The translations under genes were made by a program, and so were the position numbers. The notes under the pieces were generated by a model. It was not told the origin of the DNA and did not search any database. It saw nothing but the letters and a program-made list of their open reading frames with translations. Of a DNA stretch of 58,642 nucleotides, positions 9,174 to 44,181 are shown in pieces. How positions within the stretch are numbered: position 1 is the first letter of the stretch; each line of letters begins with the position of its first letter. The stretch is from the NCBI GenBank assembly GCA_964620515.1, contig CAZUHG010000001.1:1-58642 (forward strand). Reading direction: 5' to 3'. Origin of the DNA: an uncultured Candidatus Bathyarchaeia archaeon. GTDB lineage: Archaea > Thermoproteota > Bathyarchaeia > Bathyarchaeales > Bathycorpusculaceae.

Positions 9174-9877
9174 TTTCGCTGCCTCCGTTCCATGATAAAC
9201 TCGGCAATATCCTTACGCTTAGTGTGAGATACGGGTTCGCCTTCAATGTAAATGGCGCCTACAGGACAAACCTTCGCGCATTTTCGGCATGAAGTGCAAG
9301 AGCAGGAATTACCCCACTTTTCATCCAAATCCATTATGACCTGCGCGTCTTTTCCTCGCAATTGCAAATCCAATGTGTGAACCCCTTCGATTTCGTCGCA
9401 AACCCTTATGCAGCGCGTGCACAGTATGCACCTGTTTCGATCAATAACCAAGAAGTCATGAGTTGAATCAATCTCGTCTTTAGTCCAGTTGCGCTCGAAC
9501 ATGGTGTGGTCAACCCCCAGCTGATTCGCCAAGCTCTGCAGTTCACAGTGGTCGTTAGCCACGCAGACCGAGCAGACATGCGTTCTCTCGGAGAGAAGCA
9601 ACTGCACAGCCATCTTGCGATACTCCTTAAGCTGATCCGACTTAGTCGTGACCTCCATTCCGGGGCTTACGGGCGTTGCACAAGCTGGAAAGAGTTTTGG
9701 TGAACCACTAATCTCCACTAGGCATAAACGGCATCCGCCGTAACTGGTTAAACCCTCCAAGTTGCAGAGCGTTGGAATGTCGATGCCGTTGTCTTTAGCA
9801 GCTTTCAGAATCATCGTGCCCTCTGGAACCTCGACTTCAACGCCGTCGATTTTCAGCTTAACAGTTAAAACACTCAT
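9161..9877 (-). CDS. hoxU: diaphorase subunit HoxU-like (2Fe-2S plus 4Fe-4S ferredoxin domains, NuoG N-terminus-like)
   Basis: [27 protein letters not shown]....[10 protein letters not shown], plus the Cys clusters [11 protein letters not shown] and [15 protein letters not shown]. Confidence 0.85.
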
Positions 9878-11517: not shown

Positions 11518-11996
11518 TCCTTTGCACCTCCAAGTACTTTTCTGATTCTTTCTACCACAATTTCTTTTGTTGCCTTGCCAATGACTTCGTCATCAACAAC
11601 TATGGCTGGCGACATGGCACACGCCCCTATGCACCGTGTGACAAACAAGGACAGCTTCCCGTCAGCCGTGGTTTCTCCTCTTTTAACGTTGAATTCACGT
11701 TCAATAGCTTGCATGATTTCTTCAACGCCTTTCACGTAACAAGCCGTTCCAAGGCAGCCTGTAACTATGTGTTCACCTGGCTTTTCCAAGTTAAAAAAGC
11801 TGTAGAAAGTTGCTACTCCGAACACGTGGCTTGGGGGAAGGCGAAGCGATTGGGCAATATCCATCAACAGGTCTTTGTCAAGGTAGCCATAGATTCCTTG
11901 GGCTTTATGAAGTATCTCCAGAAGAGCACTCTCTTGATAGTTGTGTTCTTTCATTGTTTTCTCTAAAAGCATGCGTCGGTTATCATCTTTTGACAA
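11514..11996 (-). CDS. hoxE: 2Fe-2S diaphorase subunit HoxE-like (NuoE family)
   Basis: LLEILHKAQGIYGYL...VATFYSFF...CLGTACYVKG...RCIGACAMSP. Confidence 0.88.
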   Translation of the reverse strand: MSKDDNRRMLLEKTMKEHNYQESALLEILHKAQGIYGYLDKDLLMDIAQSLRLPPSHVFGVATFYSFFNLEKPGEHIVTGCLGTACYVKGVEEIMQAIEREFNVKRGETTADGKLSLFVTRCIGACAMSPAIVVDDEVIGKATKEIVVERIRKVLGGAKE

Positions 11997-12273
11997 AAAT
12001 ATACTCCTCCCACTTTGGCTCCCAATATTTCAAAATCACTAAGACCCTCTCCAGATTACTGAAAAAACGGTTCTATATAAGTTAGAGCCCGCAAAAATTT
12101 TAATTTTGTCCTGAACGCCTCTGTCTGTAGCTTAGCGAAAACATGTTATAGATTATTTAGACGCAAAATAGCCACCATGTTTATTGTTAAATAATTGTTC
12201 TTCCACGGGAAAACAATAAATGTTGCAATAGCACATTAGCTTTCCACAACTCTACCTTTGCTTTAGTAATTTA

Positions 12274-14205
12274 GTGAGAGGGTTAAACGTGCGTATAATC
12301 CTGAAAGAAGACTTTACAAACTTTGTTAATTCACTAATCGAAAATAATTCTTTAAATGTTATTGGCGTTAAGTCGAAAGGCGACAAATTCGTTTTTGGAA
12401 CGTTAGAATCTGCCAGCGAACTACGGCTTGATTATGACGTGACAATGCTCCCCCCAAAAAAGTATTTTTTTCCTCAGCGCGAAACTCTGGTCACCTACAA
12501 CGTGGCTAACGGGTTTTCTGCTAAGGACCCTGCTGATCTTAAGCCTACAGTAATCATTGGAGTTCATCCTTATGACATTGTGGCTTTGCTTCACATGGAT
12601 GAGATATTCAGAGAAACCAAGTCTGACCCATACTACTTTGAAAAGCGAAAAGCATCCATAATAATAGGCGTTAACATCCAAAAAATGTCCAAATGGTGCT
12701 TTGCATCATACATGGGCTGCGCCACAATTGACCATGGCTATGACTTGATGCTAACTGACCTCGGCAACAGGTATGCCATCAGCATCGGCTCGCTGAAGGG
12801 CGAGGCGCTTCTGGAGAAATACGCCAAGAACGTTACAGACGCGTTGGCAAGAGACGTTCAGTTGGTAGGTCAGAAAAAGCAGGAGATAAGTAACATGTCT
12901 CAGCAGAAATTTGATTTCCCAACAGAGCTTATCCCTGAATTGCTAAGCAAGACTTATGAAAAAAGCGGGTTTTGGGAGAGGCATTCCGAGAAGTGTTTAG
13001 CTTGTGGCTCTTGCGTTCTGGTGTGCCCCACGTGCTACTGCTTTGACGTTAAGGATGACCCCCATTTGTCACTTGAGCGCGGCGAGAGAATTAGAACGTG
13101 GGACGGCTGCCTACTAGAAGACTTTGCCAAGGTCGCTTCAGGAGAAAACTTCCGTCAGACGAGACCCACGAGGTACCGGCATAGGTACTTTAAGAAAGGA
13201 AAATACTTGTTCGACCGCTTTGGCTTCGTTTCATGTGTTGGCTGTGGGCGGTGCTCTTCAAACTGTTTGCCTGACATCGCTAATCCCGTCAACCTTTTAA
13301 ACGACATGTACCGTGAAGTCCTCAGCATGGGCGTGCAAATAGCCACGCCAACTGAGCCCGAAGTTAACATTGAAACTGAAGGCAACATAGATTATGTTCC
13401 TAAACTGGCGACTATTATTAATAAAGTGTCTATGACAGCCAATGAGATGTTGTTCGAAATAAAGTTGGATGACGGTTCCACTTTGAATCATAAACCGGGC
13501 CAGTTTGTTCAAGTTTCTGTTTTCGGCGTAGGCGAGGCACCGATTTCTGTGTCGTCATCGCCAACAAAGAAGGGCACGTTCGAACTTTGCGTGCGCAAAA
13601 TAGGAAACGTGACAACTAAGCTACATATGCTTAATGTAGGCGACAAAGTTGGGATCAGAGGTCCGTTTGGAAACGGCTTTGACGCAGAATTCTTGAAGGG
13701 TAGGGACCTTCTGTTTGTTGCAGGCGGTCTTGGTATTGCGCCGTTGCGGTCGTTGTTCAATTACGTTTTGGACAATAGAAAGGATTACGGTCGCGTTGTT
13801 CTTCTCTACGGCTGCAAAGAACCGCGCGAGCTGCTTTTCGGCGACGAATTGGCTGCGTTGGAAAAAAGAGATGATGTGGAATTCAAATCTACGGTTAACT
13901 GGTGCCCTGAAAACGAAATATGGACTGGAAACATAGGCGTGATCACTACGCTTATTCCTCAAGTCAATTTTGATCCAGAAACCACTTACACCATTGTTGT
14001 TGGTCCACCGATTATGTACAAGTTCGTTATAGCAGACCTGAAAAAGCGAAATGTTCCAGATGATCACATAATTCTTTCTCTTGAGCGGAGAATGAAATGC
14101 GGCGTTGGAAAATGCGGTCACTGCCAGATCAACCAGATTTACGTGTGCAGGGACGGCCCAGTGTTTAATTATTCAAAAATTAAGGGCGTACCAGAGGCGT
14201 TATAA
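12274..14205 (+). CDS. sulfhydrogenase-type (group 3b) beta-gamma fusion: 4Fe-4S (HydB/AsrA-like) N-terminal half plus FAD/NAD(P)-binding 2Fe-2S (HydG/AsrB/PyrK-like) C-terminal half
   Basis: The N-terminal half has CLACGSCVLVCPTCYCFD and CVGCGRCSSNCLPDI. The C-terminal half has PGQFVQVSVFGVGEAPISVSS, LLFVAGGLGIAPLRS and CGVGKCGHCQI. It is one uninterrupted 643-aa frame with a GTG start (alternative GTG at 12289). Confidence 0.85.
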   Translation: MRGLNVRIILKEDFTNFVNSLIENNSLNVIGVKSKGDKFVFGTLESASELRLDYDVTMLPPKKYFFPQRETLVTYNVANGFSAKDPADLKPTVIIGVHPYDIVALLHMDEIFRETKSDPYYFEKRKASIIIGVNIQKMSKWCFASYMGCATIDHGYDLMLTDLGNRYAISIGSLKGEALLEKYAKNVTDALARDVQLVGQKKQEISNMSQQKFDFPTELIPELLSKTYEKSGFWERHSEKCLACGSCVLVCPTCYCFDVKDDPHLSLERGERIRTWDGCLLEDFAKVASGENFRQTRPTRYRHRYFKKGKYLFDRFGFVSCVGCGRCSSNCLPDIANPVNLLNDMYREVLSMGVQIATPTEPEVNIETEGNIDYVPKLATIINKVSMTANEMLFEIKLDDGSTLNHKPGQFVQVSVFGVGEAPISVSSSPTKKGTFELCVRKIGNVTTKLHMLNVGDKVGIRGPFGNGFDAEFLKGRDLLFVAGGLGIAPLRSLFNYVLDNRKDYGRVVLLYGCKEPRELLFGDELAALEKRDDVEFKSTVNWCPENEIWTGNIGVITTLIPQVNFDPETTYTIVVGPPIMYKFVIADLKKRNVPDDHIILSLERRMKCGVGKCGHCQINQIYVCRDGPVFNYSKIKGVPEAL

Positions 14206-14945
14206 TGAAGAAACCAAAAGTTGCTTTCTTTGACTTCGCAGGCTGTGAAGGAGACCAGTTGCAAGTCGCAAACTTGGAAGAAGAATTTCTCACCCTTCTG
14301 GGGCAGATTGAAGTTGTGAGTTTCAGAGAAGTCATGAAAGAACACAACGACAACTATGACATAGCCTTCATTGAAGGGTCTTGCACTCGACTTCACGATG
14401 AGACCAGACTGAAACAAATCAGAAGTAATGCGAAGATAGTGGTCGCCATCGGTTCGTGCGCCACAATCGGCGGCATTAACTCTTTGAAAAACTATCAAGA
14501 CTTGGATGAGGTTAGGAGAACTGTATACGGCGACAAAGCCAAGTTGTTCGATACTTATGCAGCGAGACCTATAGATGCTGTAATACCTGTGGACGCTTAC
14601 GTGCACGGATGCCCAATAAACAGAGAGGAATTTCTCCACGTAGTTAAGTCACTTTTGCTGGGAAAGAAGCCAGACATCCCCAACTATCCTGTTTGTGTTG
14701 AATGCAAGAAAAACGAGAATGTCTGCGCGTTTGAAAGAGGCCAATTCTGCGTGGGCCCCGTCACCAGAGCAGGCTGCAACTCCTGCTGCGTCAACGAGGG
14801 CACCATATGCTGGGGATGCCGCGGCTTGGTGGATAATCCGAACGAAAACTCCCAAAAAGAAGTCTTAATCAAATACGGTCTCACAGTCGACGACGCAATA
14901 AACAAGTTTAAATTGTATTTCGGTTGGCAGGAGAAAAAAAGATGA
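14205..14945 (+). CDS. hydD: [NiFe]-hydrogenase small (delta) subunit, group 3b
   Basis: MKKPKVAFFDFAGCEGDQLQ...GSCATIGGIN...HGCPINREE, plus a C-terminal Cys-rich cluster. It joins the preceding gene by a TAATG overlap. Confidence 0.88.
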   Translation: MKKPKVAFFDFAGCEGDQLQVANLEEEFLTLLGQIEVVSFREVMKEHNDNYDIAFIEGSCTRLHDETRLKQIRSNAKIVVAIGSCATIGGINSLKNYQDLDEVRRTVYGDKAKLFDTYAARPIDAVIPVDAYVHGCPINREEFLHVVKSLLLGKKPDIPNYPVCVECKKNENVCAFERGQFCVGPVTRAGCNSCCVNEGTICWGCRGLVDNPNENSQKEVLIKYGLTVDDAINKFKLYFGWQEKKR

Positions 14946-16252
14946 AAGACAAAAACTTTGACGTTGAAGTACACCATGTAACAAGAGTTGAAGGACACGG
15001 AAACATCTACGTCAACGTAAGGAAAGGAACAGTAGAGCACTGTGAATGGAACATCTCCGAAGCGCCACGCTTCTTCGAAGCCATGGTTATAGGGCGCAAA
15101 TGGAGCGAACTGCATCACATAACTTCGCGCATCTGCGGCATCTGCTCCATAGGTCACGCACTTGCATCTTTAAGAGCCACTGAAGCAGCGATGGGCGTAA
15201 CCATAAGCGACCAAGACCTCAAACTGAGAAAAATAGCACTGCACGCAGAGAACATGCAAAGTCACCTTTTACACGTGGGCTTTCTGGTTCTTCCCGACCT
15301 GATGGACGTTGGTTCAGTGATTCCGCTTGCGTCTTCTAATCCGGAAGAACTCAAAACCGTGTTGCGCTTGCACAGACTGGCAAATGAAATGTCCAACTTG
15401 GTCTGCGGTAGGACAACGCACCCTCAAAGGCTGCTGCCAGGCGGTTTCTCCAAGATTCCCTCTATGAAGGAACTAAACGAGCTCAGAGAAAAGCTAAAGG
15501 CATCTGTTCCAGACTTGCAAGCCGTCGCGAAATTGCTCCAGAGTTTAGCGCCGAAGATACCTGATTTTGTTAGGGAAACCGAGTTCATCGCGCTAACTAA
15601 ACCTGATGAGTATGCGCTTTACGATGGAAAAATCGGCTCCACAGACACAGGCGCTGCACCAGCAAGCGAGTACCTTTCATTCACTAACGAGTACATAGTT
15701 CCTCAGTCTACGGCGAAACGGGCAAAGCACGTTCGAGACTCGTACATGGTCGGCGCCCTCGCTAGGCTTAACATTAACTACGACCTGCTGTCTCCATTGG
15801 CAAAGAAGACCGCTGAAATGTTCCACCTAAAGCCAGTATGCCATAACCCATTCATGAATAGTATTGCGCAGTTAGTGGAAGTGGTTCACAGCGTGGAAGA
15901 TTCAATTAGGCTTATTAACGAGCTTGAAGCGGCAGGTTTGAAGAGCCAGCCAGACTACAATAACCCAGAAGTGAAAGTCAAAGCAGGTCGAGGCGTCGGC
16001 GGAGTTGAAGTTCCCAGAGGTATACTGTTCCACGATTACACGTATAACGAGAAAGGCATCTGCATAAAAGCCAACTGCGTTATTCCAACGAACCAGAACC
16101 ACGGCAACATCGAGTTAGACATGAAATCTTTAGTGCCTAAAATCATAGATAAGACGCCGAAGGAGATTGAGCTGACCTTAGAAATGCTAGTGCGCGCTTA
16201 TGACCCCTGCATCTCCTGCTCAACACACGCTGTTAAAGTACACTTCGTTTAG
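14942..16252 (+). CDS. hydA: [NiFe]-hydrogenase large (alpha) subunit, group 3b
   Basis: VTRVEGHGNIYV, SRICGICSIGH and the C-terminal DPCISCSTHAVKVHFV. The ATG at 14942 forms an ATGA overlap with the hydD stop; the ORF track starts at the TTG at 14924. Confidence 0.9.
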   Translation: MKDKNFDVEVHHVTRVEGHGNIYVNVRKGTVEHCEWNISEAPRFFEAMVIGRKWSELHHITSRICGICSIGHALASLRATEAAMGVTISDQDLKLRKIALHAENMQSHLLHVGFLVLPDLMDVGSVIPLASSNPEELKTVLRLHRLANEMSNLVCGRTTHPQRLLPGGFSKIPSMKELNELREKLKASVPDLQAVAKLLQSLAPKIPDFVRETEFIALTKPDEYALYDGKIGSTDTGAAPASEYLSFTNEYIVPQSTAKRAKHVRDSYMVGALARLNINYDLLSPLAKKTAEMFHLKPVCHNPFMNSIAQLVEVVHSVEDSIRLINELEAAGLKSQPDYNNPEVKVKAGRGVGGVEVPRGILFHDYTYNEKGICIKANCVIPTNQNHGNIELDMKSLVPKIIDKTPKEIELTLEMLVRAYDPCISCSTHAVKVHFV

Positions 16253-19312: not shown

Positions 19313-19420
19313 GCCTGTTTTCATCATGCTTTTGGTTGCGGAAAGCGCCAATAGTGGTCTCCCCTTATGGGTCTCTGCATGTTATTTCTGTTAGGCGGCA
19401 ATTATGATGGGTTTGGCGTT
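19313..19420 (+). repeat. 108-bp intergenic element, copy B
   Basis: It matches the reverse complement of 43477..43584 with a single mismatch (G at 19406 versus the partner base at 43491), by manual alignment. Identity ends abruptly at both ends. Confidence 0.9.
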
Positions 19421-32102: not shown

Positions 32103-32912
32103 TTAGAGTGTGTAGTTTTTTGCTAAGCTGGTTTTTGGATGCTTCCGCAGCCAATAGACGCCAACAGCAACTGCAACAGATGATAGCAGCATAACAAACA
32201 CGATGCTAAAGCCCTCTGGATATGGGTCTTGGGAAAAAGTCGAGACTACTCCCCAAGTGTCTGGGACGTCTGCGCTGCCTGGTGCCCATGATCGCCATCC
32301 CGCTGCGGGGTTGCTCGCGTCGTAATATGCAATTCTAAATGCGTTTGGCGGCTGACCAACTACTAAAGTGCCTGTTTGCTTGTCGTTTATTTTGAATTCT
32401 GTGATCCAGTGGGGTGTGCTGTTCCATGGAGAAGCGCTTATCGAGTTAGCCCATGAGACTTCGCCTGCTGGCAGGGTGATTTCGCTCCAGCCTGTTCCAT
32501 TTCCTTGATACGCTTTCATTGTGGTGTGTCCAAGGATTTCTATCTTGAAATGGGCGGCCGCGGGAGCAGCGCCTCCGCTGTTGGCGGGGTCTAAGCAAAA
32601 TTGCCATATGTCTCCGGCGTCGTTGGTGTTGTCATCGAAAACTTCGGTAAGGAACAGCATAGCATAATTGGGAGAGACGGTGGTATCCATTTTGTATTTG
32701 CATCCAGCTGTGTAAGTGTTAGACATGTTCATCCTTGGGGCGTCGGTCCATTCGGCTGCAACAGTCCAATTTCCATCAACGGTGACGGTGGTGCTAGCCC
32801 AGTATTCTAGTATTGAGTAAGCTGAGTTGCCTGCCGTGGCTGTTCCTGCGGTTACTATCAGCATACTGCAAAGCAGAAGTATTGAAAAAGCAACATTTAC
32901 AATTTTCTTCAT
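32103..32912 (-). CDS. secreted surface protein (CBM9/DOMON-like N-terminal pattern) with a C-terminal TM anchor, paralog 1
   Basis: Signal peptide MKKIVNVAFSILLLCSMLIVTAGTATA, then TVDGNWTVAAEWTDAP. The C-terminus is PYPEGFSIVFVMLLSSVAVAVGVYWLRKHPK. Confidence 0.75.
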   Translation of the reverse strand: MKKIVNVAFSILLLCSMLIVTAGTATAGNSAYSILEYWASTTVTVDGNWTVAAEWTDAPRMNMSNTYTAGCKYKMDTTVSPNYAMLFLTEVFDDNTNDAGDIWQFCLDPANSGGAAPAAAHFKIEILGHTTMKAYQGNGTGWSEITLPAGEVSWANSISASPWNSTPHWITEFKINDKQTGTLVVGQPPNAFRIAYYDASNPAAGWRSWAPGSADVPDTWGVVSTFSQDPYPEGFSIVFVMLLSSVAVAVGVYWLRKHPKTSLAKNYTL

Positions 32913-33026
32913 TCTTCTTTAATCTCCTTTAAGGATTATACTTATTCTTCGCAGTGACCTTAAAAATTTTGCTATACGACAGCCCATGCGACACCTGATT
33001 GGAAAACCAAAATTTAATGCAAAAAC

Positions 33027-33062
33027 GTGAAAAGAACAAAAACGTTCCAACAATTGTACTAA
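33027..33062 (+). pseudogene. relic of the 5' end of the wHTH regulator gene, carried along by the tandem duplication
   Basis: GTGAAAAGAACAAAAACGTTCCAACAATTGTACTAA aligns with ATGATAAGAACAAAGCGTTCCAACAATTGGACTTATAAG at 34112 and stops after 11 codons. Confidence 0.45.
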
Positions 33063-33154
33063 AAAGAATAAAGTAAACTTGCGTGGTAACAGAGGCAAAC
33101 TTTGAAGCGGAAAGGCAAACATAAAAAAAGAGGGAGATTTGGCGCTTGCAGATT

Positions 33155-33949
33155 TCAGAGCGTGTTTTTTGCTAAACTGTAGCGTTCGGTTTTTGGGCGT
33201 TTCCGTAGCCAATAGAAGCCAACGGCAACCGCAACAGTTGACAGTAGCGCAACGAATACGATGTTAAAGGCTTCTGGCCATGGGTCTTGTGAATAAGTCG
33301 GAATTAATCCCCACTGATCTGGAACGTCCGCACTGCCTGGTGCCCACGCATGCCATGTAGCCTTGCTCGCGTCGTAAGCCGCAAGTCTCATACCAGTTGG
33401 TGGAGCATTGGCAACTGTTATTGAGCCGCCTGTCTTTACATCAGATATCTCTACAATCCAGTGAGGTGTGCTGTTCAATGGAGAGGCGCTTATCGAGTTA
33501 GCCCAAGACACTTCGCTCGGATCGGCGATTTCAGTCCAGCCTGCTCCATTTCCCTGATACGCTTTCAAGGTGGTGTGTCCTGTGATTTCTATTTTGAAAT
33601 CGCCGGCCTGAGGAGCAGTGCCTCCGCCGTTGCTATCGTCGAGGCAAATTTGCCATATGTCTCCGGCGTCGTTGGTGTTGTCATCGAAAACTTCGATTAT
33701 CCACTGGCAGGAAAATGTGTCATAATCCATCTTGTATTTGCCTACAGCAGTGGCTGACATGTTTATCTTGGGAGCGTCGGTCCATTCGTTTGCAGAGGTC
33801 CAGTTTCCATCAACGGTTGCTGGAGTGACAGCCCAATACTCCAGCACTGAGTAAGCTGCATTGCCTGCCATGGCGGTTTCTACGCTTACTAGCAATAGTG
33901 GACTGCATAATGCCAGTATACAGAAAGCCGCAAAAAGGATTTTCTTCAT
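33155..33949 (-). CDS. secreted surface protein (CBM9/DOMON-like N-terminal pattern) with a C-terminal TM anchor, paralog 2
   Basis: Signal peptide MKKILFAAFCILALCSPLLLVSVETAMA, then TVDGNWTSANEWTDAP. The C-terminus is PWPEAFNIVFVALLSTVAVAVGFYWLRKRPK. It is collinear with 32103..32912. Confidence 0.75.
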   Translation of the reverse strand: MKKILFAAFCILALCSPLLLVSVETAMAGNAAYSVLEYWAVTPATVDGNWTSANEWTDAPKINMSATAVGKYKMDYDTFSCQWIIEVFDDNTNDAGDIWQICLDDSNGGGTAPQAGDFKIEITGHTTLKAYQGNGAGWTEIADPSEVSWANSISASPLNSTPHWIVEISDVKTGGSITVANAPPTGMRLAAYDASKATWHAWAPGSADVPDQWGLIPTYSQDPWPEAFNIVFVALLSTVAVAVGFYWLRKRPKTERYSLAKNTL

Positions 33950-34111
33950 TCTTTTCTACTCTCCTTTAGTGGCTAACTTATTATTCGATTCAGTAGCTTA
34001 AAAAATTTTGCTATATAGCAGCCTATACAATGCCTGATTTACAATTTGAAAGAGAAATACGCGTATAAACTTGCATACACTTTAGAATTAAACCAGAATT
34101 TAACGCAAAAC

Positions 34112-38055: not shown

Positions 38056-38288
38056 CAACAATCAGCTTATATGCTCGAAGCAAGGGCGATTTAAGAGTTA
38101 CGGGCAGCAATCAACCATCCAACTTTCAAAAAGCTTCTTAATCGGGGTTATCTGCTGCACATTCCCGACATGATTCTCTTCGTGAACGCCAACATTCAGG
38201 GTTTCTGAACCCGCTGTTAAAGAAGTTTAAAATAATAATCGATAGCCATTTAGGTTTGAAAACAATAGTAGAGAGAAGTTGATGCGGA

Positions 38289-39572
38289 ATGGCTTTGGTG
38301 AAAATTCGCGAAGTCCTTGACGGATGCTATGAAGATAAGAAAGTTACAATTAGAGGCTGGGTTTACCGCAAAAGAGAAGGGAAAGAGCTAATTTTCCTGT
38401 TGGTGCGGGACTCGACGGGTTTCATCCAGTGCACCGTCAAGAAAAACGGCGCTGCGTGGAGCGAAGCAGAACGCCTAACAATTGAATCTTCCTTAACGCT
38501 TGAGGGCACAGCTAAACCTGACAAGCGCGCGCCAGGAGGCTACGAAATCGCCGCTGAATCCATCGCCGTTATCGGCTTAGCTGAACTTTTCCCGATAACC
38601 AAAGACCAAAGCGAGCAGTTCATCCGCGATGTCCGCCACCTCTGGCTACGCAGCCGCCGGATGAACCTGGTGATGAAGATTCGAGCGGACGTTCTGGAAT
38701 TCACCCGTGACTTCTTTAAGAAGCAAGAGTTCACAGAGGTTTCTCCGCCCATGTTTATTTCTGCCGCTGTTGAGGGCGGCTCAACCCTTTTCGGCTTGAA
38801 ATATTTTGACCAGAACCTCTATTTGACGCAGAGTTCCCAGCTTTACCTTGAAATTCTGATTTATTCGTTGGAGAAGGTCTACTGTATCGCACCGTCGTTT
38901 CGCGCTGAAAAGAGTCGAACAATACGGCATTTGACGGAGTACTGGCACATCGAAGGTGAATGGCCCTTCGCTGACATGAATGACTTGATGCGTTTTGAAG
39001 AGGAGCTTATGGCTTATATCTGCCAGCAAACCGCTGAAAAATGCAAACCTGAACTTGAAGAGTTAGGCGTTGATGTTTCCAAGCTGGCTTCGGTTAAAAC
39101 TCCGTTTCCGAAAATGACGTATGCTGAGGCGGTTGAGTTTCTCCGCAAGAAGGGCGCGAAGGTGAAGTGGGGCGACGACTTAGGCTACGATGACGAAAAG
39201 CTTTTGGCGGAAGAGTTTGGTAAACCGTTCTTCGTTTATGATTATCCAACTGCTATCAAAGCGTTTTACTGCAAAACGCACCGTGACCGCCCTGAAGTTG
39301 CCATGTCCGTGGATATGATGGTGCCCCGAATAGGCGAGGTTTCCACGGGCGGCGCCAGAGAAGACGACAAAGAAGTGCTGATTAAACGGATTAAAGAGAT
39401 GGGGTTGAAGGCAGAGGATTACGAGTGGTACTTGGACCTCAGGCGTTACGGCACTGTACCGCATGTAGGTTTCGGCATGGGTTTGGAGAGGCTACTGGCT
39501 TGGATGCTTGACTTGGAAAACATTATTGATGCTATTCCGTTTCCGAGAACAACCCGAAGGTTCTATCCATAA
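38289..39572 (+). CDS. asnS: asparagine--tRNA ligase
   Basis: IRGWVYRKREGKELIFLLVRDSTGFIQ, KRAPGGYEI, AAVEGGSTLFGLKYFDQNLYLTQSSQLYLE, PSFRAEKSRTIRHLTEYWHIE, YEWYLDLRRYGTVPHVGFGMGLERL and FPRTTRRFYP closely follow archaeal AsnRS as I remember it. Confidence 0.88.
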   Translation: MALVKIREVLDGCYEDKKVTIRGWVYRKREGKELIFLLVRDSTGFIQCTVKKNGAAWSEAERLTIESSLTLEGTAKPDKRAPGGYEIAAESIAVIGLAELFPITKDQSEQFIRDVRHLWLRSRRMNLVMKIRADVLEFTRDFFKKQEFTEVSPPMFISAAVEGGSTLFGLKYFDQNLYLTQSSQLYLEILIYSLEKVYCIAPSFRAEKSRTIRHLTEYWHIEGEWPFADMNDLMRFEEELMAYICQQTAEKCKPELEELGVDVSKLASVKTPFPKMTYAEAVEFLRKKGAKVKWGDDLGYDDEKLLAEEFGKPFFVYDYPTAIKAFYCKTHRDRPEVAMSVDMMVPRIGEVSTGGAREDDKEVLIKRIKEMGLKAEDYEWYLDLRRYGTVPHVGFGMGLERLLAWMLDLENIIDAIPFPRTTRRFYP

Positions 39573-39634
39573 CAGTATTCCTCATTCTAAAACAGTCTAC
39601 CGTGAACACTTAACCCGCGCTCTTGCATGTGCTG

Positions 39635-41008
39635 TTATAGCTCTAAAATCGTGTTTATTTTTCGCATAACCCGCTTCATACTGCGCCGATTTATTTGGTT
39701 GTTTTCAATACCGTTCCATAACTGCAACATTAGCCCTTCTTTTAGGCAACTTCGCATTTCTTCTTCGGGAATGGGCAGTTTTAAAGGCAAATTTTTGTTT
39801 TCGGAAATAATGTTATGTCTCACTGCGATATCGTGAAGTTTAGAACCTATGATGGGGTTAGTAATAGACCAAGATATGTAAGTTACTAATTTATCCTTCA
39901 AAAGTTGTTTAATAGTGCTTAGAGTTTGGCACACTTCTGCAGTTGTTTCGTATTTCAGCGCTCCGTTTTCTTCCCAAGCGTTATACAACATAAAGAAGCC
40001 ATAGACCTTAATTTTATGTTTCTTCAGAATATTCAATGTGCGCATGGTGTCTTCGAACGTGATCATTTTGTTAATGCCTTTTAAAACCCTGTTGTTAACT
40101 GATTCTATGCCAATGTGCACGAGCCAGCAATTAATCGCTTTCAGCTCTTCAGCGAGTTTCTCAGTAACCTTATCTGCTCTAAGATTGCATTGGAAATATA
40201 AATCTTTCAAATTCAACTTTTCAATTTCTTCGCAGACAGAAACCGCCCAGTCAACATCGGCATTAAAGGTGTCGCATCTAATGTAAATCTCTCTAACACC
40301 CCTATCGTGTAGATACTTAACTTCTTCAGCAATGTTCTGAGGTGAACGCAATCTAACCCAAGGCTTCTTCAGCCTCCACACAGGAATGCTGCAGAAAGTA
40401 CAGGCGCAGGGGCAGCCTCTTGCCGGTAAAACGTAAGCAAAAGGATACTTCTTCCTAACAGGTCCATCGTATTTTGTGAAGTCTATTATGTCCCATGCAG
40501 GCAGAAAGTTTATGTCCTCAATCAACCTGCGCAGCTGATTGGAATGGATACTTCCCAACTTATCCTGATAGGCTATGCCCTCTACGCTAGATAGCTCCTT
40601 GTTTTCCTGAAGAGCTTTCAGAAGTTCTACAAACGTTTCTTCTCCTTCACCGATAACACAAATATCCGTTTCAGAATTAGCGAATACGTCGTTTGAATCA
40701 AAAGTTGGATGGGGTCCTCCAGCCACAACTAAAACACTAGGCAGCACTTGTTTAACGTGGTTTATCACTTCAAACGCCAATGCTTTTTTTGGTGTAGTAA
40801 AAGAAACCCCGTAAACGTCTGGTTTTAACCTTTTAATTTCAGCTAAATGCTGTTCTAGATTTAAAAATGGTTCTAAATAATGAAATTCAACGTTGGGCAC
40901 TCTGTTTCGTGCATAGGAAATCATGTATAAAATGCCAAGATTAGGTGACTCTGTCACGGCTTCGCCTTCCAAATGCGCCATCGGTACGTCAGCGAAGACA
41001 ACTTTCAC
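39635..41008 (-). CDS. B12-binding-domain radical SAM protein (class B), copy 1
   Basis: An N-terminal Rossmann-like B12-binding region (VLVVAGGPHPTF, DICVIGEGEETFVELL), a CxxxCxxC cluster (ARGCPCACTFCSIP) and an HIGIESVN motif. The start codon is GTG. Confidence 0.85.
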   Translation of the reverse strand: MKVVFADVPMAHLEGEAVTESPNLGILYMISYARNRVPNVEFHYLEPFLNLEQHLAEIKRLKPDVYGVSFTTPKKALAFEVINHVKQVLPSVLVVAGGPHPTFDSNDVFANSETDICVIGEGEETFVELLKALQENKELSSVEGIAYQDKLGSIHSNQLRRLIEDINFLPAWDIIDFTKYDGPVRKKYPFAYVLPARGCPCACTFCSIPVWRLKKPWVRLRSPQNIAEEVKYLHDRGVREIYIRCDTFNADVDWAVSVCEEIEKLNLKDLYFQCNLRADKVTEKLAEELKAINCWLVHIGIESVNNRVLKGINKMITFEDTMRTLNILKKHKIKVYGFFMLYNAWEENGALKYETTAEVCQTLSTIKQLLKDKLVTYISWSITNPIIGSKLHDIAVRHNIISENKNLPLKLPIPEEEMRSCLKEGLMLQLWNGIENNQINRRSMKRVMRKINTILEL

Positions 41009-41148
41009 TTACTTGCATCCTCGTTTCTGCGGGTACCATGATAATTACTGCGCGTTAACATATCCTTTTCGCTTAAGCGTTTCTTGAAGCACTTAGCAGC
41101 GCCAAAAGGGCTACCGTTTACTTCAGAAAAAATCTTCTTTGCATCAAG

Positions 41149-41850
41149 TTACGTGTGTCCTGTGAAAGCCTCAAGCCTCAGCTGAGTTTGTGGCAACCCT
41201 AAGTCTTTGACGAGCTTTTCCATTGCCTGCACCATTGGAGGAGGACCGCACGCGTAGAACCCTCGTTCCTTGTAGTCAAGCACTTCTTTTTTCAACATTT
41301 CCGCGTTAATCACTCCTGTGGCGCCTTTCCAAGCGTTGCTGGCTTCGCTGAGTATGAAAACCACTTTGAGATTCTTGTTTTGCTTCTCCATCTCTTCCAG
41401 CTCTTTTTTGAAAACTATATCGCTTTCGCTTCGGTTGCCATAAAGCAAAGTAATCTTGGCAGTTAAGCGCATGTCTGTGCAGTACTTGCAAATGCTCCTA
41501 AACGGGGTTATCCCGATCCCTCCAGCAAGCAGGACTATTTTTTCGTTTTCGCCCTCAAAAGTGAACTTGCCATAAGGCGCGTCTATCGTTGCCCAATCGC
41601 CCACTTTAAATGTCCTTAAAGCGGTTGAGAATTCGCTGTCTGTGAGTTTTTTAGTGAACTCAATGTGCTCTTTTTCCGTCGGGCTACTGGATAAGCTGAA
41701 CGGTTTGGTCAGTGTCTTCCCGCTGGATTTTAGTGTTGCAAACAAATACTGTCCTGGTTTGTAGCTTAAGGTTGTTGGTCTTGGGAATCTAAAAGTTGTC
41801 ACGTTGTAGGTGTGCGGTATAATCTCCTTCACGTAAGTTTCGAACTTCAT
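41149..41850 (-). CDS. FNR-family FAD/NAD(P)-binding oxidoreductase (flavin reductase module, no Fe-S domain)
   Basis: YNVTTFRFPRP..YKPGQYLFATL, KPFSLSSSP (RxYS-like FAD motif), and VLLAGGIGITPFRS (NAD(P) motif), ending in ..LEAFTGHT. The ATG at 41850 is preferred; an alternative TTG is at 41874. Confidence 0.8.
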   Translation of the reverse strand: MKFETYVKEIIPHTYNVTTFRFPRPTTLSYKPGQYLFATLKSSGKTLTKPFSLSSSPTEKEHIEFTKKLTDSEFSTALRTFKVGDWATIDAPYGKFTFEGENEKIVLLAGGIGITPFRSICKYCTDMRLTAKITLLYGNRSESDIVFKKELEEMEKQNKNLKVVFILSEASNAWKGATGVINAEMLKKEVLDYKERGFYACGPPPMVQAMEKLVKDLGLPQTQLRLEAFTGHT

Positions 41851-41920
41851 AAAAATCTCTCTCTTTTCAGGCAAACTTCAGTTAGTGTTTTACGGGTACA
41901 TCTATAAAATTGTATCGTGG

Positions 41921-43354
41921 CTAGGCTACGCTGTTCGCTGCTTCCCTGATTTCGCCTAGTCGACTCAGATTGCTCACTAAGACATTCATCCGATACATGC
42001 TTTTCAAAGTTTGCACAGCCTGCTTCACTAAAAAGTTTGGGCGACAGACATGCTGATAAAAGGCGTTATGCATGATTTGCATTATTTCGTCACGGGCAAC
42101 CCTTGCATAAGGGTACACTTCAGAAACGGCAACGCCCTTCTCCCACAATTTCTCTGGGTCTATGAAGCCTTTAGCTACAAACTCGTTCCAAATGTCGTTG
42201 CCAGGGTGAGCGCCAAGTATGTTGAATTGCGGGAGGTCTATGGGAACCTGCTGAGCAAAATTTATTGTGTTCCAAATCTCCTCGCGAGTTTCATCTGGAG
42301 CGCCAACTATGAAAGACCCGGCGATAACATCCACTCCAGCTTTCTTGGCTGTTTTCACGGCGGTTTCTGACTGCTCAGGGGTAATTCTCTTGTTGTAGTA
42401 GTTTAGGATTCGCTGGTTGGCGCTTTCGATGCCTAAATAGAGGACTTTGCAGCCTGCCTGCACCATTTCACGCAGCATACCGTAGGAGCAAATGTCGACT
42501 CTTCCTTCACATATCCACTCTAAGTCAAGTTTCTCTTTTCTTATGCCTCTGCAGATTTCTATCACTCTTTTCGGGTTCATGGTGAAGGCGTCATCCACGA
42601 AAATGAGTTGCTTGTACCCTTCGCTGGCTAACAACTGCAGTTCCTCCACAGTGTTTTTGGCTGATCTTGGCCGCCACCTTTTTTTGGCAAGTTCCGTGCA
42701 GCTACAAAATCTGCAGCCGTAAACGCAGCCGCGAGAGGTGACGATGCTTGTGAACTTTTTTGGCGCGATGTTTGCTCCTGCAACTACGCAGTGATATTCT
42801 ACGTTGAGCAGTTTGCGGTCTGGAAAAGGCAGGGAATCTAAGTCCTGAATTAACTGCTGATCAGGCGTAGAGACCATTTTTCCTTCATTTCTGAAGTTGA
42901 TTCCCCGAATTTTCTTCAGGTCCTCTCCGTTTTTCAGGCAGTTTGCCAGTGCCACAACGGTTTTTTCGCCTTCGCCGCGGGCGACTATGTCAACGGAAGA
43001 GTATTTCCTAAGAATTCGCTCTGCGTTGAATGTAGCGTGATGGTTACCGAAAACTGTAGTGACCTCTGGGTTTTTCTCTTTCACTTTATTGCTTATCAGC
43101 CCCGCGGTCTGACCTGAACTAGTAAGCGTTGAGAAACCCAGCACGTCAGGGTTTTCTTTCTCCACCCAACGCACGGTTTCTTCCACCGTAAAGCCTAGCG
43201 CAGGCTGATCCAACACTGAAACTTCAACACCTATTTTCTTGAGGACCGCCGCTAAATACAAGATGTTTAAAGGTGGAAACGCGGCGATGGATTTTCTGCC
43301 TTCCCGTTCATCAATGCCTTCGTTGGGACTTGCGCTGATAAACGAGAACTTCAT
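41921..43354 (-). CDS. B12-binding-domain radical SAM protein (class B), copy 2
   Basis: An N-terminal B12-binding-like region (VTTVFGNHHATF, DIVARGEGEKTVVALA), a cluster motif SRGCVYGCRFCSCT, and LGIESANQ. Confidence 0.85.
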   Translation of the reverse strand: MKFSFISASPNEGIDEREGRKSIAAFPPLNILYLAAVLKKIGVEVSVLDQPALGFTVEETVRWVEKENPDVLGFSTLTSSGQTAGLISNKVKEKNPEVTTVFGNHHATFNAERILRKYSSVDIVARGEGEKTVVALANCLKNGEDLKKIRGINFRNEGKMVSTPDQQLIQDLDSLPFPDRKLLNVEYHCVVAGANIAPKKFTSIVTSRGCVYGCRFCSCTELAKKRWRPRSAKNTVEELQLLASEGYKQLIFVDDAFTMNPKRVIEICRGIRKEKLDLEWICEGRVDICSYGMLREMVQAGCKVLYLGIESANQRILNYYNKRITPEQSETAVKTAKKAGVDVIAGSFIVGAPDETREEIWNTINFAQQVPIDLPQFNILGAHPGNDIWNEFVAKGFIDPEKLWEKGVAVSEVYPYARVARDEIMQIMHNAFYQHVCRPNFLVKQAVQTLKSMYRMNVLVSNLSRLGEIREAANSVA

Positions 43355-43430
43355 ATAAGCACTTCGTTTTGCTTATTCATCTGAATCTGCACATAAATTT
43401 TTAGATAATCTCAAACTGCAGTTCATTTAG

Positions 43431-43476
43431 CGTTTCAACCTATTTATAAGGGAGGGGGTGCTCTCGCAGAGAAGCA
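43431..43476 (-). promoter_or_regulatory. C-rich + TATA promoter-like module (shared with 2819..2866)
   Basis: The minus strand reads CTCTGCGAGAGCACCCCCTCCCTTATAAATAGGTTGAAACG, about 85-95 nt upstream of the radical SAM ATG at 43354. It directly abuts repeat copy C. Confidence 0.4.
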
Positions 43477-43584
43477 AACGCCAAACCCATAATAATTGCC
43501 GCCTAACAGAAATAACATGCAGAGACCCATAAGGGGAGACCACTATTGGCGCTTTCCGCAACCAAAAGCATGATGAAAACAGGC
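43477..43584 (-). repeat. 108-bp intergenic element, copy C (inverted relative to copy B)
   Basis: Its reverse complement equals 19313..19420 except for one base, by manual alignment. Confidence 0.9.
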
Positions 43585-43716
43585 ATTGGAAAGTTGAGGC
43601 CCAATTGCATACTTAATGGTATTAGGCTCCCGTAGAGCATGCTATTCTGTCCAGAGAATATTTATATTAGGCTTAATGATTTTACTGCAAGGAAAAACCG
43701 TAAGGAAACAGGCATC

Positions 43717-44181
43717 TTGACAACTCCCTATGACGTTCCAGCATTACAGTTCATCGAAAAACTAGCTAAATACCTGAAAGAGAACGTTGATGAAGTGCAA
43801 CCTCCAGCATGGGCAAGCCTTGCTAAAACTGGCGCTCATGTGGAAAAGCAACCGCAAAACCCTAATTGGTGGTACATACGTAGCGCTTCGATACTGCGTA
43901 AGGTCTACATTCACGGTCCCATAGGCATAGAAAAACTGCGCGCCGACTACGGAGGAAGAAAAGATTTCGGCGTCAAACCTGAGCACGTGGTGAAAGCTGG
44001 TGGAAGCAACATCAGAAAAGTCCTGCAGCAGCTAGAAGCAGCAGGTTTAGTTCAAACGGCACGCCCTCAGGGAAGAACAATGACTCCAAAAGGGCGAAAA
44101 CTTCTTCAGGAAGTAGCTGAGGACCTGCAGAAAGAGTTAGCGAAAGCGGTTCCTGAACTCAGGAAATATCAAGGCGAATAA
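43717..44181 (+). CDS. rps19e: 30S ribosomal protein S19e
   Basis: (M)TTPYDVPALQFIEKLAKYLKEN...WWYIRSASILRKVYIHGPIGIEKLRADYGG.... A TTG at 43717 gives the canonical N-terminus. The ORF-track start at 43639 adds 26 atypical residues. A TATA-like AATATTTATATTAGG lies at about 43657-43671. Confidence 0.9.
   Translation: MTTPYDVPALQFIEKLAKYLKENVDEVQPPAWASLAKTGAHVEKQPQNPNWWYIRSASILRKVYIHGPIGIEKLRADYGGRKDFGVKPEHVVKAGGSNIRKVLQQLEAAGLVQTARPQGRTMTPKGRKLLQEVAEDLQKELAKAVPELRKYQGE

Follow-up and report, generated by a model that had tools for sequence, protein, structure and literature searches.

Do two class-B radical SAM genes that flank a flavoprotein gene in an uncultured Bathyarchaeia archaeon form a functional module? 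The preliminary description of this locus read the flavoprotein as a dedicated, built-in reductase that renders a three-gene module self-sufficient. The window, i.e., the whole stretch of 58,642 nucleotides that was analyzed, belongs to an archaeon that occurs in wastewater and anaerobic-digester metagenomes. The ORFs of rSAM1, FNR, and rSAM2 are all present on its minus strand, next to an asparaginyl-tRNA synthetase gene:

38289..39572, plus strand: asnS (asparaginyl-tRNA synthetase), the convergent flank of the three genes
39635..41008, minus strand: rSAM2, a 457-aa class-B radical SAM protein with a GTG start (ORF, Pfam)
41149..41850, minus strand: FNR, a 233-aa FNR-superfamily flavoprotein with FAD_binding_6 and NAD_binding_1 domains (Pfam)
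41921..43354, minus strand: rSAM1, a 477-aa class-B radical SAM protein with B12-binding and radical SAM domains (ORF, Pfam)

ORF and Pfam analyses bear out the gene content and domain architectures described before, two class-B radical SAM enzymes with an FNR-like protein between them. The 140-nt gap between FNR and rSAM2 also stands, but the 46-nt gap given for rSAM1 and FNR stems from a 241-aa TTG-extended ORF; the spacer is 70 nt with the conserved ATG (MKFETYVKEI..., 233 aa), the start common to all homologues. The comparison covered ~130 related loci; counts centered on rSAM1 refer to 61 informative contigs and those centered on FNR to 20 Bathyarchaeia species genomes, and asnS served as an internal control for nonfunctional synteny.

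Two radical SAM families and a two-domain flavoprotein

Both radical SAM proteins match PF02310 and PF04055 above gathering scores (81 and 92 bits for rSAM1, 68 and 80 bits for rSAM2). The CxxxCxxC motif of rSAM1 (C210/C214/C217) is invariant in 13 orthologues, and that of rSAM2 is C199/C203/C206. According to the preliminary description, placement of both proteins inside well-characterized families would have counted against a module, but neither belongs to one, all NCBIfam scores being far below the curated cut-offs. The top match of rSAM1 is HpnJ (TIGR03471) with 219.8 bits against a cut-off of 577.6, and its scores are 183.7 bits for BchE (TIGR02026; cut-off 481), 100 bits for the MCR glutamine C-methyltransferase MgmA (TIGR04014; cut-off 360), and 105 bits for the AprD4 family (cut-off 500). 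The HpnJ and BchE profiles align to rSAM1 nearly full-length. For rSAM2, the top match is BchE (124.6 bits, cut-off 481), with 118.5 bits for HpnJ (cut-off 577.6) and 97 bits for MgmA (cut-off 360). rSAM1 and rSAM2 share 29% identity across 366 residues, which makes “paralog-like but clearly diverged” a fair description, and they are members of different families.

Homologues of rSAM1 form >120 clusters with 68 to 97% identity. The orthogroup is confined to Bathyarchaeia and has a sharp edge, identity dropping from 58% to 44% or less; the gene is single-copy, with a conservation close to that of asnS. An AF2 model of rSAM1 of moderate quality (pLDDT 70.5) matched AprD4, OxsB, TsrM, MgmA, CysS, and TokK in Foldseek searches (E values of 1e-14 to 1e-17, TM scores of ~0.55 to 0.66). 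The model, which covers rSAM1, displays the three-domain fold of the solved class-B members, the best solved-structure match being AprD4 (6fd2), an enzyme that has a B12-binding domain yet does not use B12. By sequence, rSAM1 is a putative cobalamin-type radical SAM enzyme, and rSAM2 is a putative enzyme of the same type from another Bathyarchaeial class-B family.

In the flavoprotein, the two Pfam domains (PF00970, FAD_binding_6, 45 bits; PF00175, NAD_binding_1, 88 bits) fill all 233 residues with no Cys-cluster motif, in agreement with the earlier observation that an Fe−S domain is lacking. Pfam and the orthologue alignment revealed no fused Fe−S, heme, or flavodoxin domain. The motifs GGIGITP, CGPPxM, SSSPxE, and EFTKK are invariant across 14 orthologues; the three residues before SSSPxE are K-[PH]-[FL], only the Lys being nearly invariant. 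These are the features of a plain two-domain FNR-superfamily protein (GGxGxxP, CGPxxM, and the flavin-binding xxFSxSS). Among solved structures, NADH-cytochrome b5 reductases (2eix, eukaryotic, 89 bits) and Fre (1qfj) come closest, and E. coli Fpr (1fdr) is also among the matches. Scores against the Fre (99 bits, cut-off 230), Fpr (41 bits, cut-off 390), and PyrK (74 bits, cut-off 224) models all lie below the cut-offs, and the C-terminal 2Fe-2S domain of PyrK is missing. FNR homologues form >120 clusters at identities of at least 72%, and the orthologues of Methanolobus, Methanomethylovorans, and ANME-1 are 48 to 59% identical. The FNR protein most likely belongs to the stand-alone NAD(P)H:acceptor oxidoreductases of cytochrome-b5-reductase/Fre type; it is conserved and presumably has a housekeeping role.

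Distribution of the pair and the trio

rSAM1 is followed by FNR in 32 of the 61 informative contigs and occurs without it in 29. Linkage was found in 22 of 23 contigs with an rSAM1 identity of at least 80%, in 3 of 5 at 70 to 80%, and in 7 of 33 at 60 to 70%. In a neighbor-joining tree of rSAM1, a single clade with four losses holds all linked loci, and thus the rSAM1-FNR adjacency seems to go back to a single ancestral event. Linkage to FNR never occurs in the other large clade (~27 informative loci). Outside the linked clade, rSAM1 contexts are many and unrelated (pyrC, pyrI/pyrB, CBS proteins, FeoB). In two unlinked loci (L100 and L102), a gene for a 2x[4Fe-4S] ferredoxin-domain protein lies directly upstream of rSAM1. 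The adjacency reaches down to 66% identity for rSAM1 and 58% for FNR, and the spacer stays short (55 to 82 nt) across this deep divergence. The short spacer is an observation at odds with a view of separate genes, as is the possibility of read-through transcription from rSAM1 into FNR.

Seen from FNR, rSAM1 lies upstream in 8 of the 20 Bathyarchaeia species genomes and not in the other 12. In most Bathyarchaeia loci, FNR and asnS converge, irrespective of an rSAM1 gene ahead of FNR. Within 6 kb of FNR, B12 radical SAM genes were absent from 19 euryarchaeal loci (17 Methanosarcinales and 2 ANME-1) and from two loci of uncertain assignment, labeled only “Thermoproteota archaeon” and “archaeon.” In these loci, FNR shares an operon with genes for an FMN reductase and the archaeoflavoprotein AfpA (TIGR02699, 262 bits, above the cut-off) or is followed by a UbiA prenyltransferase gene. 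FNR and rSAM1 do not go together wherever either is found: FNR has no rSAM1 upstream in 12 of 20 genomes and in 21 of 21 other archaeal loci, and rSAM1 occurs without FNR in 29 of 61 contigs.

The complete rSAM1-FNR-rSAM2 trio is present in 3 of the 61 contigs and in L045 and L046, i.e., in five contigs whose proteins are at least 84% identical. Outside very close relatives, the trio is therefore not conserved as neighbors, an outcome that the preliminary description had named as evidence against its reading. The interval from FNR to asnS lacks rSAM2 in every one of the 20 species genomes and in 58 of 61 contigs, and rSAM2 is a lineage-specific insertion at this position. Its nearest relatives in other contexts lie by GT4 glycosyltransferase genes or carB, those at 56 to 57% identity adjoining the former.

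Genes for B12 radical SAM proteins are rare, with ~4 extra paralogues in 575 kb of sampled Bathyarchaeial DNA. A third class-B gene is present beyond asnS in L007, L045, and L053. Together with rSAM1 and rSAM2, it brings the class-B genes acquired separately within ~6 kb of FNR in this lineage to three, which speaks against a view of separate genes and is not easily accounted for by chance insertion.

Promoter-like boxes and the 108-nt element

The intergenic features of the locus are as follows:

41051..41072, minus strand: conserved BRE/TATA-like block GCGAAAAGGATATGTTAACGCG upstream of rSAM2, at about -45 to -65
41127..41132, minus strand: T6 run, a candidate archaeal oligo-T terminator, 17 nt past the FNR stop codon
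41901..41910, minus strand: TATA-like box of the FNR gene, ATTTTATAGA, within the 70-nt rSAM1-FNR spacer
43392..43406, minus strand: BRE/TATA-like box of rSAM1, ATCTAAAAATTTATG, 52 nt upstream of the ATG
43477..43584, minus strand: copy C of a dispersed, ~108-nt noncoding element, co-directional with rSAM1

With up to three mismatches, 49 of 87 rSAM1 loci have the ATCTAAAAATTTATG box around positions -50 to -57. In rSAM1 orthologues of at least 82% identity, the box is nearly invariant, regardless of the upstream gene; the promoter-like module reported upstream of rSAM1 is thus confirmed. FNR has the boxes GATTTTATAGG, GTTTAATGG, and GTTCTAATG 40 to 60 nt upstream of its ATG in Bathyarchaeia loci with and without rSAM1 upstream. 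The trio loci (L045, L046, and L055-L057) all have almost the same GCGAAAAGGATATGTTAACGCG block, the rest of the FNR-rSAM2 spacer being variable in length (~110 to 220 nt) and sequence. All three kinds of box are putative promoters. Oligo-T runs act as terminators in archaea, and by this analogy the T6 run is a candidate terminator of FNR.

Copy C, present as described before, is 99% identical to positions 19313-19420, which are in inverted orientation; a third copy (5820-5899) is 85% identical. The element family is present upstream of rSAM1 in L007, L013, L053, L052/L078, L056, L057, L005, and L066, and as a dispersed repeat it occurs elsewhere too, including upstream of unrelated genes. Homology of the window to its trio relative L045 stops at 43438.

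Probable separate genes, possible shared pathways, and known systems

The reading as a dedicated three-gene module is weakly supported: the trio is narrow, the pair has a single origin, FNR occurs without rSAM1, the genes have their own boxes, and no carrier is encoded. No small ferredoxin or flavodoxin gene was found in the trio or in the annotated ORF set of the window, so that a reductase is encoded here but no low-potential carrier to complete the electron path. The three-gene arrangement appears recent and is probably not a self-sufficient enzyme module. Most likely, the locus comprises three separate transcription units, two for orphan class-B radical SAM enzymes and one for a general NAD(P)H oxidoreductase. 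On balance, we favor three separately promoted genes that share a neighborhood in one Bathyarchaeia lineage and form no obligate module.

Under the separate-genes reading, the FNR protein would transfer hydride from NAD(P)H to FAD and then single electrons to a diffusible partner encoded elsewhere. The ancestral position of its gene would be convergent with asnS; rSAM1 would have arrived just upstream of the FNR promoter in one ancestor and stayed by vertical descent, and rSAM2, its promoter block included, would have entered the FNR-asnS interval in the narrow subclade of the window only. We infer that FNR has a housekeeping role. The two radical SAM enzymes would each presumably start with reduction of the [4Fe-4S] cluster, generate a 5'-deoxyadenosyl radical by SAM cleavage, and use cobalamin for methyl transfer or rearrangement. 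The substrates of rSAM1 and rSAM2 are probably different.

A weakened form of the original hypothesis, considered unlikely, is that FNR supplies rSAM1 with NAD(P)H-derived electrons under physiological conditions and in time also came to serve rSAM2 and the neighboring third class-B enzyme. Electrons would travel through reduced free flavin to cob(III)/cob(II)alamin, as with Fre, or by way of a carrier of the ferredoxin or flavodoxin kind whose gene lies elsewhere, and the clustering would reflect selection for co-inheritance despite a promoter for each gene. In E. coli, the Fpr-flavodoxin pair activates both radical SAM enzymes and the cobalamin of MetH, and Fre reduces cob(III)alamin. Besides these activities, the rSAM1-FNR adjacency, which a deep clade has kept at a constantly short distance, the three independent class-B acquisitions around FNR, and the ferredoxin-domain gene beside the unlinked rSAM1 of L100 and L102 are consistent with such a role. 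However, the adjacency has a single phylogenetic origin, and FNR is equally conserved where rSAM1 lies elsewhere and in archaea devoid of rSAM1. The FNR gene also keeps its own promoter-like box in either setting, a mediator gene is lacking, and we know of no precedent for direct electron transfer from an FNR to a radical SAM enzyme. Gene order carries little functional signal here, since the convergent FNR/asnS synteny is wider still and plainly nonfunctional.

It is improbable that rSAM1 and rSAM2 modify a common substrate in two consecutive steps, such as C-methylations, or a methylation and a ring reaction, of an ether lipid or cofactor of archaea, in the manner of Gms/Gmm or GrsA/GrsB. 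The two genes are close and on the same strand, and Bathyarchaeota were reported to have many paralogues of the GMGT methylase Gmm, with a “Gmm2” clade and several copies per genome (PMC11214058). HpnJ, the top profile of rSAM1, was grouped with MoeK5 and Fom3 in a published sequence-similarity network (PMC9204698), and Gmm was reported to be 31% identical to MoeK5 (PMC11214058). These points are outweighed by the rarity with which rSAM2 accompanies rSAM1 (3 of 61 contigs), the GT4 or carB surroundings of its closest relatives, the 29% identity and separate promoter-like boxes of the two genes, and the lack of an adjacent lipid-biosynthesis gene, the sole UbiA-family gene lying ~10 kb off in a generally syntenic stretch.

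A RiPP maturation locus, with a 22-codon ORF inside the 108-nt element as the precursor gene, is disfavored as very improbable. It would fit the matches of rSAM1 to the RiPP enzyme ApyD (172 bits) and to TIGR03975 (117 bits) and a SPASM radical SAM gene ~5 kb away in close relatives. However, both scores fall far short of the cut-offs (750 and 282), frameshifts separate the versions of the small ORF in the copies of the element, a dispersed repeat that also precedes unrelated genes, and rSAM1 is a single-copy gene with asnS-like conservation and varied housekeeping contexts.

Among known systems, the main HpnJ/BchE/MoeK5/Fom3 cluster (COG1032) shares with the window enzymes an N-terminal Rossmann-type B12-binding domain, a CxxxCxxC barrel, and a C-terminal helical domain. 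It differs in that the window proteins score 2.5- to 4-fold under every curated cut-off and have an archaeal host, the rSAM1 orthogroup being restricted to Bathyarchaeia; no hopanoid, bacteriochlorophyll, or antibiotic pathway genes were found near the window genes. Gmm and GrsA/GrsB are likewise archaeal B12-binding radical SAM enzymes and act on ether lipids (PMC11214058, PMC13459092). Compared by gene context, they differ in that no gms-, tes-, or grs-like neighbors turned up in the window or in the other loci inspected. The part of the Gmm preprint supplement that was covered contains none of six accessions looked up for relatives of rSAM1 and rSAM2.

Like FNR, E. coli Fpr (with flavodoxin) and Fre have a two-domain FAD/NAD(P)H fold, and they deliver electrons to radical SAM clusters and cobalamin. 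FNR differs from both in its scores below the cut-offs of their models, its lack of a partner carrier gene, and its nearest structures, the eukaryotic b5 reductases. AprD4 and AprD3 are a radical SAM diol dehydratase and an NADPH-dependent reductase that acts on the AprD4 product. This system, which contains the top structural match of rSAM1, also pairs a radical SAM enzyme with a nicotinamide-dependent reductase, but AprD3 is a dehydrogenase that reduces a product and not an electron donor of the FNR type. The FMN-reductase/FNR/AfpA operon of Methanolobus has no radical SAM gene, the partners being flavoproteins and a multiheme cytochrome with a flavodiiron protein nearby, and its FNR orthologue is 48 to 54% identical to that of the window and keeps all of the motifs.

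Three genes and their families

The three minus-strand ORFs of the preliminary description were all recovered: two genes for B12-binding (class-B) radical SAM proteins, rSAM1 and rSAM2, with the gene for the flavoprotein FNR between them.

Genes of the region and their flanks
43639-44181, divergent flank: ribosomal protein S19e
41921-43354, minus strand: rSAM1, ORF of 477 aa
41149-41874, minus strand: FNR, ORF of 241 aa from TTG, or 233 aa from the ATG at 41850
39635-41008, minus strand: rSAM2, ORF of 457 aa, GTG start
38289-39572, convergent flank: asnS

The gap of 140 nt before rSAM2 was confirmed, while the 46 nt given for the other gap was not; because the 233-aa homologues of FNR all start MKFET..., translation begins at the ATG, which leaves 70 nt between rSAM1 and FNR. 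Homologue names and sequencing run metadata identify the host as an uncultured Bathyarchaeia archaeon of wastewater or anaerobic-digester communities.

Both outer proteins possess the B12-binding and radical SAM domains (Pfam PF02310 and PF04055) and a CxxxCxxC motif. Sequence relatives of solved structure are AprD4, OxsB, MgmA (9ccb; PMC11796369), TokK, and CysS, and the fold of rSAM1 in an AlphaFold model (pLDDT 70.5) resembles these same structures. By architecture and motif, and for rSAM1 by predicted fold as well, the two proteins fit the class-B definition. They are clearly diverged from each other, as had been described, with 29% identity over 366 residues.

The nearest NCBIfam profiles of rSAM1 are HpnJ (220 bits versus a cut-off of 578), BchE (184 versus 481), and ApyD (172 versus 750); those of rSAM2 are BchE (125 bits), HpnJ (118 bits), and the MJ_1487 family (103 versus 251). 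Both proteins score below the curated cut-offs of all NCBIfam families, fail membership of HpnJ, BchE, MgmA, ApyD, PhpK, HpnR, and others, and fall in no characterized family. They are new, uncharacterized members of known enzyme kinds.

The rSAM1 orthogroup comprises more than 120 clusters at 68 to 97% identity, Bathyarchaeial wherever named. Its edge is sharp: among the representatives of a 50%-identity clustered library, one has 58% identity and the next at most 44%. Beyond it, the best 10 representatives (40 to 58%) are environmental proteins and one protein of a Lokiarchaeota metagenome-assembled genome. rSAM1 and asnS are conserved to a similar degree from locus to locus (e.g., 68% versus 76% and 91% versus 90%). 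In a published sequence network, HpnJ is grouped with MoeK5 and Fom3 (PMC9204698), and the archaeal GMGT methylase Gmm is reportedly 31% identical to MoeK5 (PMC11214058). Since HpnJ groups with MoeK5 and Fom3 and Gmm resembles MoeK5, rSAM1 may sit in this loosely defined HpnJ/MoeK5/Fom3/Gmm set. Several “Gmm2” paralogues were reported in Bathyarchaeota (PMC11214058); six accessions from among the relatives of rSAM1 and rSAM2 do not occur in the covered portion of that preprint's supplement. Butanetriol tetraethers are lipids inferred for Bathyarchaeia (PMC11868695), and lipid radical SAM enzymes were reviewed in 2026 (PMC13459092) in a paper that has no section on an enzyme making butanetriol tetraethers and contains neither “butanetriol” nor “Bathyarchae.” rSAM1 is a speculative candidate for such an enzyme.

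FNR is a plain two-domain enzyme of the FNR superfamily. Pfam matches are limited to FAD_binding_6 (PF00970) and NAD_binding_1 (PF00175), in agreement with the described lack of an Fe−S domain, and no cysteine cluster was found in an alignment of 14 orthologues, in which GGIGITP, CGPPxM, SSSPxE, and EFTKK are invariant. Among solved structures, it is closest to NADH-cytochrome b5 reductases (2eix, 89 bits), NqrF FAD domains, and Fre; it scores below the curated cut-offs for Fre, Fpr, and PyrK. Identity with PyrK, considered because rSAM1 lies near pyr genes elsewhere, was ruled out by that score and by the lack of the PyrK Fe−S domain.

Gene neighborhoods in related genomes

A scan of metagenome contigs centered on rSAM1 yielded 80 loci, of which 61 extend far enough downstream to be informative. 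FNR comes next after rSAM1 in 32 of the 61: in 22 of 23 contigs with rSAM1 identity of at least 80%, in 3 of 5 at 70 to 80%, and in 7 of 33 at 60 to 70%. The spacer is 55 to 82 nt except at L068 and L071 (536 nt) and at L050 and L051, where the tblastn match to FNR starts inside the gene and an ATG lies ~75 nt past the rSAM1 stop (numbers with L denote loci of relatives compared with the window). In a neighbor-joining tree of 84 rSAM1 sequences, the FNR-linked loci are confined to a single clade, which also holds four unlinked loci, and a second large clade (~27 informative loci) is never FNR linked. The adjacency therefore looks like a single ancestral rearrangement, inherited vertically.

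The contexts of rSAM1 in the unlinked clade are several and unrelated. One consists of three CBS-domain genes upstream and genes for dihydroorotase (pyrC; TIGR00857, 393 bits) and a Mut7-C protein downstream; others include an upstream radical SAM gene with pyrI and pyrB nearby, FeoB, and a ferredoxin-domain gene. No consistent substitute redox partner accompanies rSAM1 where FNR is absent. The sole alternative redox neighbor seen is a 163-aa 2×[4Fe−4S] ferredoxin-domain protein, encoded directly upstream of and codirectionally with rSAM1 at two FNR-unlinked loci (L100, 4431-4922; L102, 1830-2321). Pyrimidine-biosynthesis genes recur near radical SAM genes at L099, L106, L112, and L126, at L085, L091, L100, and L102, and at L047 and L130: outside the FNR-linked clade, rSAM1 is directly upstream of dihydroorotase or a few genes from pyrI/pyrB, and rSAM2 relatives at 67 to 69% identity lie beside carB. 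This recurrent nearness may be plain synteny.

A second scan, centered on FNR and using one genome per GTDB species, covered 41 loci. In the 20 Bathyarchaeia genomes, FNR is almost always convergent with asnS; rSAM1 immediately precedes it in just 8 of them, and rSAM2 occurs at none of these loci. The reductase had been called dedicated to the radical SAM genes, a description that neither this ratio nor that of the contig scan upholds. Orthologues at 48 to 59% identity occur in Methanolobus, Methanomethylovorans, other Methanosarcinaceae, and ANME-1 (Methanophagales), and no B12 radical SAM gene was found within 6 kb of them in the methanogen and ANME-1 loci scanned. In Methanolobus, the orthologue overlaps an upstream gene for an NADPH-dependent FMN reductase and is followed by that for the archaeoflavoprotein AfpA (TIGR02699, 262 bits versus a cut-off of 192), with a multiheme cytochrome and a flavodiiron protein nearby; in ANME-1, a UbiA-family prenyltransferase gene follows. 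The Methanolobus bombayensis locus (L032, 3708-7267) and 16 other Methanosarcinales loci share a conserved cluster in the order multiheme cytochrome c, FMN reductase, FNR orthologue, and AfpA, in which the orthologue's start overlaps the preceding stop and inositol-3-phosphate synthase is also encoded nearby. This cluster may form an NAD(P)H-to-AfpA electron chain.

The convergent FNR/asnS pair is conserved more widely than rSAM1-FNR, and asnS and the genes for a beta-propeller protein, a LexA-like protein, and UbiA are syntenic between the window and a relative at 69%. The FNR/asnS synteny is plainly nonfunctional, and because this functionally unrelated pair is the more widely kept, gene order here is weak evidence of function.

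The full trio is present in only 3 of the 61 contigs; look-up of an 86% rSAM2 relative gave two further trio contigs. Its conservation as a set of neighbors was thus not borne out beyond very close relatives: on comparative sequence evidence, the three-gene arrangement is recent and lineage specific, not a conserved system. The relatives of rSAM2 at 82 to 89% identity are the trio loci themselves. A large group at 55 to 57% is divergent from a GT4 glycosyltransferase gene in glycosyltransferase-rich regions of three independent Bathyarchaeia genomes, which hints at a glycoconjugate substrate for those proteins. Because its relatives keep other neighbors (carB or the GT4 gene), rSAM2 is best read as a lineage-specific insertion from a family otherwise associated elsewhere. 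A third class-B gene lies just beyond asnS in close relatives; its product (478 aa; HpnJ, 258 bits) is 33% identical to rSAM1. The genes that follow it there encode a PQQ beta-propeller protein of 798 aa and a SPASM radical SAM protein; the window has a cation-efflux gene at its position.

Class-B genes at loci of relatives
L049 4704-7389, L131 3696-6386, L132 3722-6392: rSAM2-family gene and GT4 glycosyltransferase gene, divergent, ~160 nt apart
L045 8935-13374, L007 8282-9592, L053 8782-10092: third class-B radical SAM region

Transcription signals and the dispersed element

Promoter-like and terminator-side features of the window
43392-43406, minus strand: rSAM1 box ATCTAAAAATTTATG, at −52
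41901-41910, minus strand: FNR box ATTTTATAGA, −60 to −51, within the rSAM1-FNR spacer
41127-41132, minus strand: T6 run after the FNR stop
about 41059-41069, minus strand: rSAM2 box

The rSAM1 box is almost invariant in orthologues of at least 82% identity, whatever the upstream gene, and is recognizable in the other clade as AAAAGTTTAT. Equivalent FNR boxes stand at the same distance from the ATG in genomes without rSAM1 upstream, and we explain the short, constant rSAM1-FNR spacer by retention of the predicted FNR promoter. Before rSAM2, the block GCGAAAAGGATATGTTAACGCG is conserved in all trio loci, with a remaining spacer of ~110 to ~220 nt. These signals suggest three transcription units. 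A search of sequencing runs matched the region in DNA metagenomes only and in no RNA run.

A noncoding family of ~100 to 130 nt, dispersed in Bathyarchaeia, has one copy 5′ of rSAM1.

Copies of the dispersed element
5820-5899, plus strand; 19313-19420, plus strand; 43477-43584, minus strand: window
L007 4167-4378, L013 4268-4385, L053 4766-4884, L001 10923-11024, L012 (3 copies), L008/L079: relatives

The window copies each lie 120 to 180 nt upstream of a codirectional gene. These genes encode a protein of unknown function (372 aa), a DUF7347 protein (369 aa), and rSAM1; the element is often, not exclusively, upstream of rSAM1 in relatives. The copies of L007, L013, and L053 and two of the window (5820 and 19313) have a TATA-like box of their own, CCCCCTTATTTAAAG, in front of them. 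No Rfam match was found at gathering score or at E values up to 1, folding energy does not differ from that of shuffled sequences (z −0.3 and −0.2), and a small ORF considered as a RiPP precursor is frameshifted between copies. The element may be a small-RNA gene or MITE-like. Synteny breaks there (43438-43584): homology with the trio relative L045 (84.7% nt over 38219-43438) ends just before the copy, and L045 has S17e, ThiS, and SAM hydroxide adenosyltransferase genes, not S19e, upstream of rSAM1. In a ~96%-identical strain (DNA metagenome run X3), a contig has 1502 nt where the window has 98 nt (43478-43575) of the element. The two 108-nt copies that face opposite ways were also considered as sites of an inversion; the loose ends in run X1, likewise a digester metagenome, are simply contigs of the other copy and hence no evidence of an inverted form.

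Elsewhere in the window, a ~1.05-kb tandem duplication (32103-34039; 72 to 92% nt identity in blocks) encodes paralogous ORFs of 269 and 264 aa without Pfam match. A second FNR-like module (7193-16252) contains a 643-aa fusion (12274-14205) of 4Fe−4S dicluster, FAD_binding_6, NAD_binding_1, and PyrK-type Fe−S domains, next to two NiFe-hydrogenase large-subunit genes and one for a Nuo51-like flavoprotein, and is a predicted sulfhydrogenase-like or NAD(P)-coupled hydrogenase region.

The flavoprotein as a possible electron donor

We consider it probable that the three are independent genes in a lineage-specific neighborhood. Coupling of FNR, as electron donor, to its radical SAM neighbors seems unlikely: the rSAM1-FNR adjacency has a single origin, FNR is independent of rSAM1 in distribution and predicted promoter and has quite different neighbors in methanogens, and a mediator gene is absent from module and window. 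A literature search for radical SAM enzymes with an FNR-type partner found none, and no class-B enzyme whose gene is linked to that of an FNR partner came to light. In favor of coupling, the Bathyarchaeial DNA sampled holds few class-B genes (~4 additional paralogues in 575 kb), and yet three, rSAM1, rSAM2, and the one beyond asnS in L007, L045, and L053, lie within ~6 kb of FNR in the lineage; at only 29 to 33% identity, they are not tandem duplicates.

A more specific proposal, which we regard as quite improbable, is that FNR is a physiological NAD(P)H-driven activator of class-B enzymes, whose genes were for this reason repeatedly recruited beside it, with rSAM1 as a core lipid or cofactor modifier. 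FNR would then pass electrons to cob(II)/cob(III)alamin, to the [4Fe−4S] cluster, or to both, directly or via free flavin, and rSAM1 would be a candidate methylase for the butanetriol/pentanetriol tetraethers inferred for the group. That rSAM1 and rSAM2, no more alike than either is to generic class-B enzymes, share one pathway is very doubtful, and a peptide-maturation locus is highly improbable.

As the evidence stands, a sharply bounded, highly conserved, Bathyarchaeia-specific rSAM1 orthogroup is now defined, well suited to heterologous expression combined with lipidomics or metabolomics, and the FNR/asnS synteny is a useful warning, for this group, not to infer function from gene order. 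Known systems also count in favor of coupling: in E. coli, flavodoxin together with an FNR-type reductase activates both radical SAM enzymes and cobalamin, and cob(III)alamin is a substrate of reduction by Fre. If FNR did supply electrons to its radical SAM neighbors, it would be a natural NAD(P)H-dependent activation system with genetic linkage to cobalamin-dependent radical SAM enzymes, the first of its kind, and would be of practical help in reconstituting these notoriously difficult proteins.
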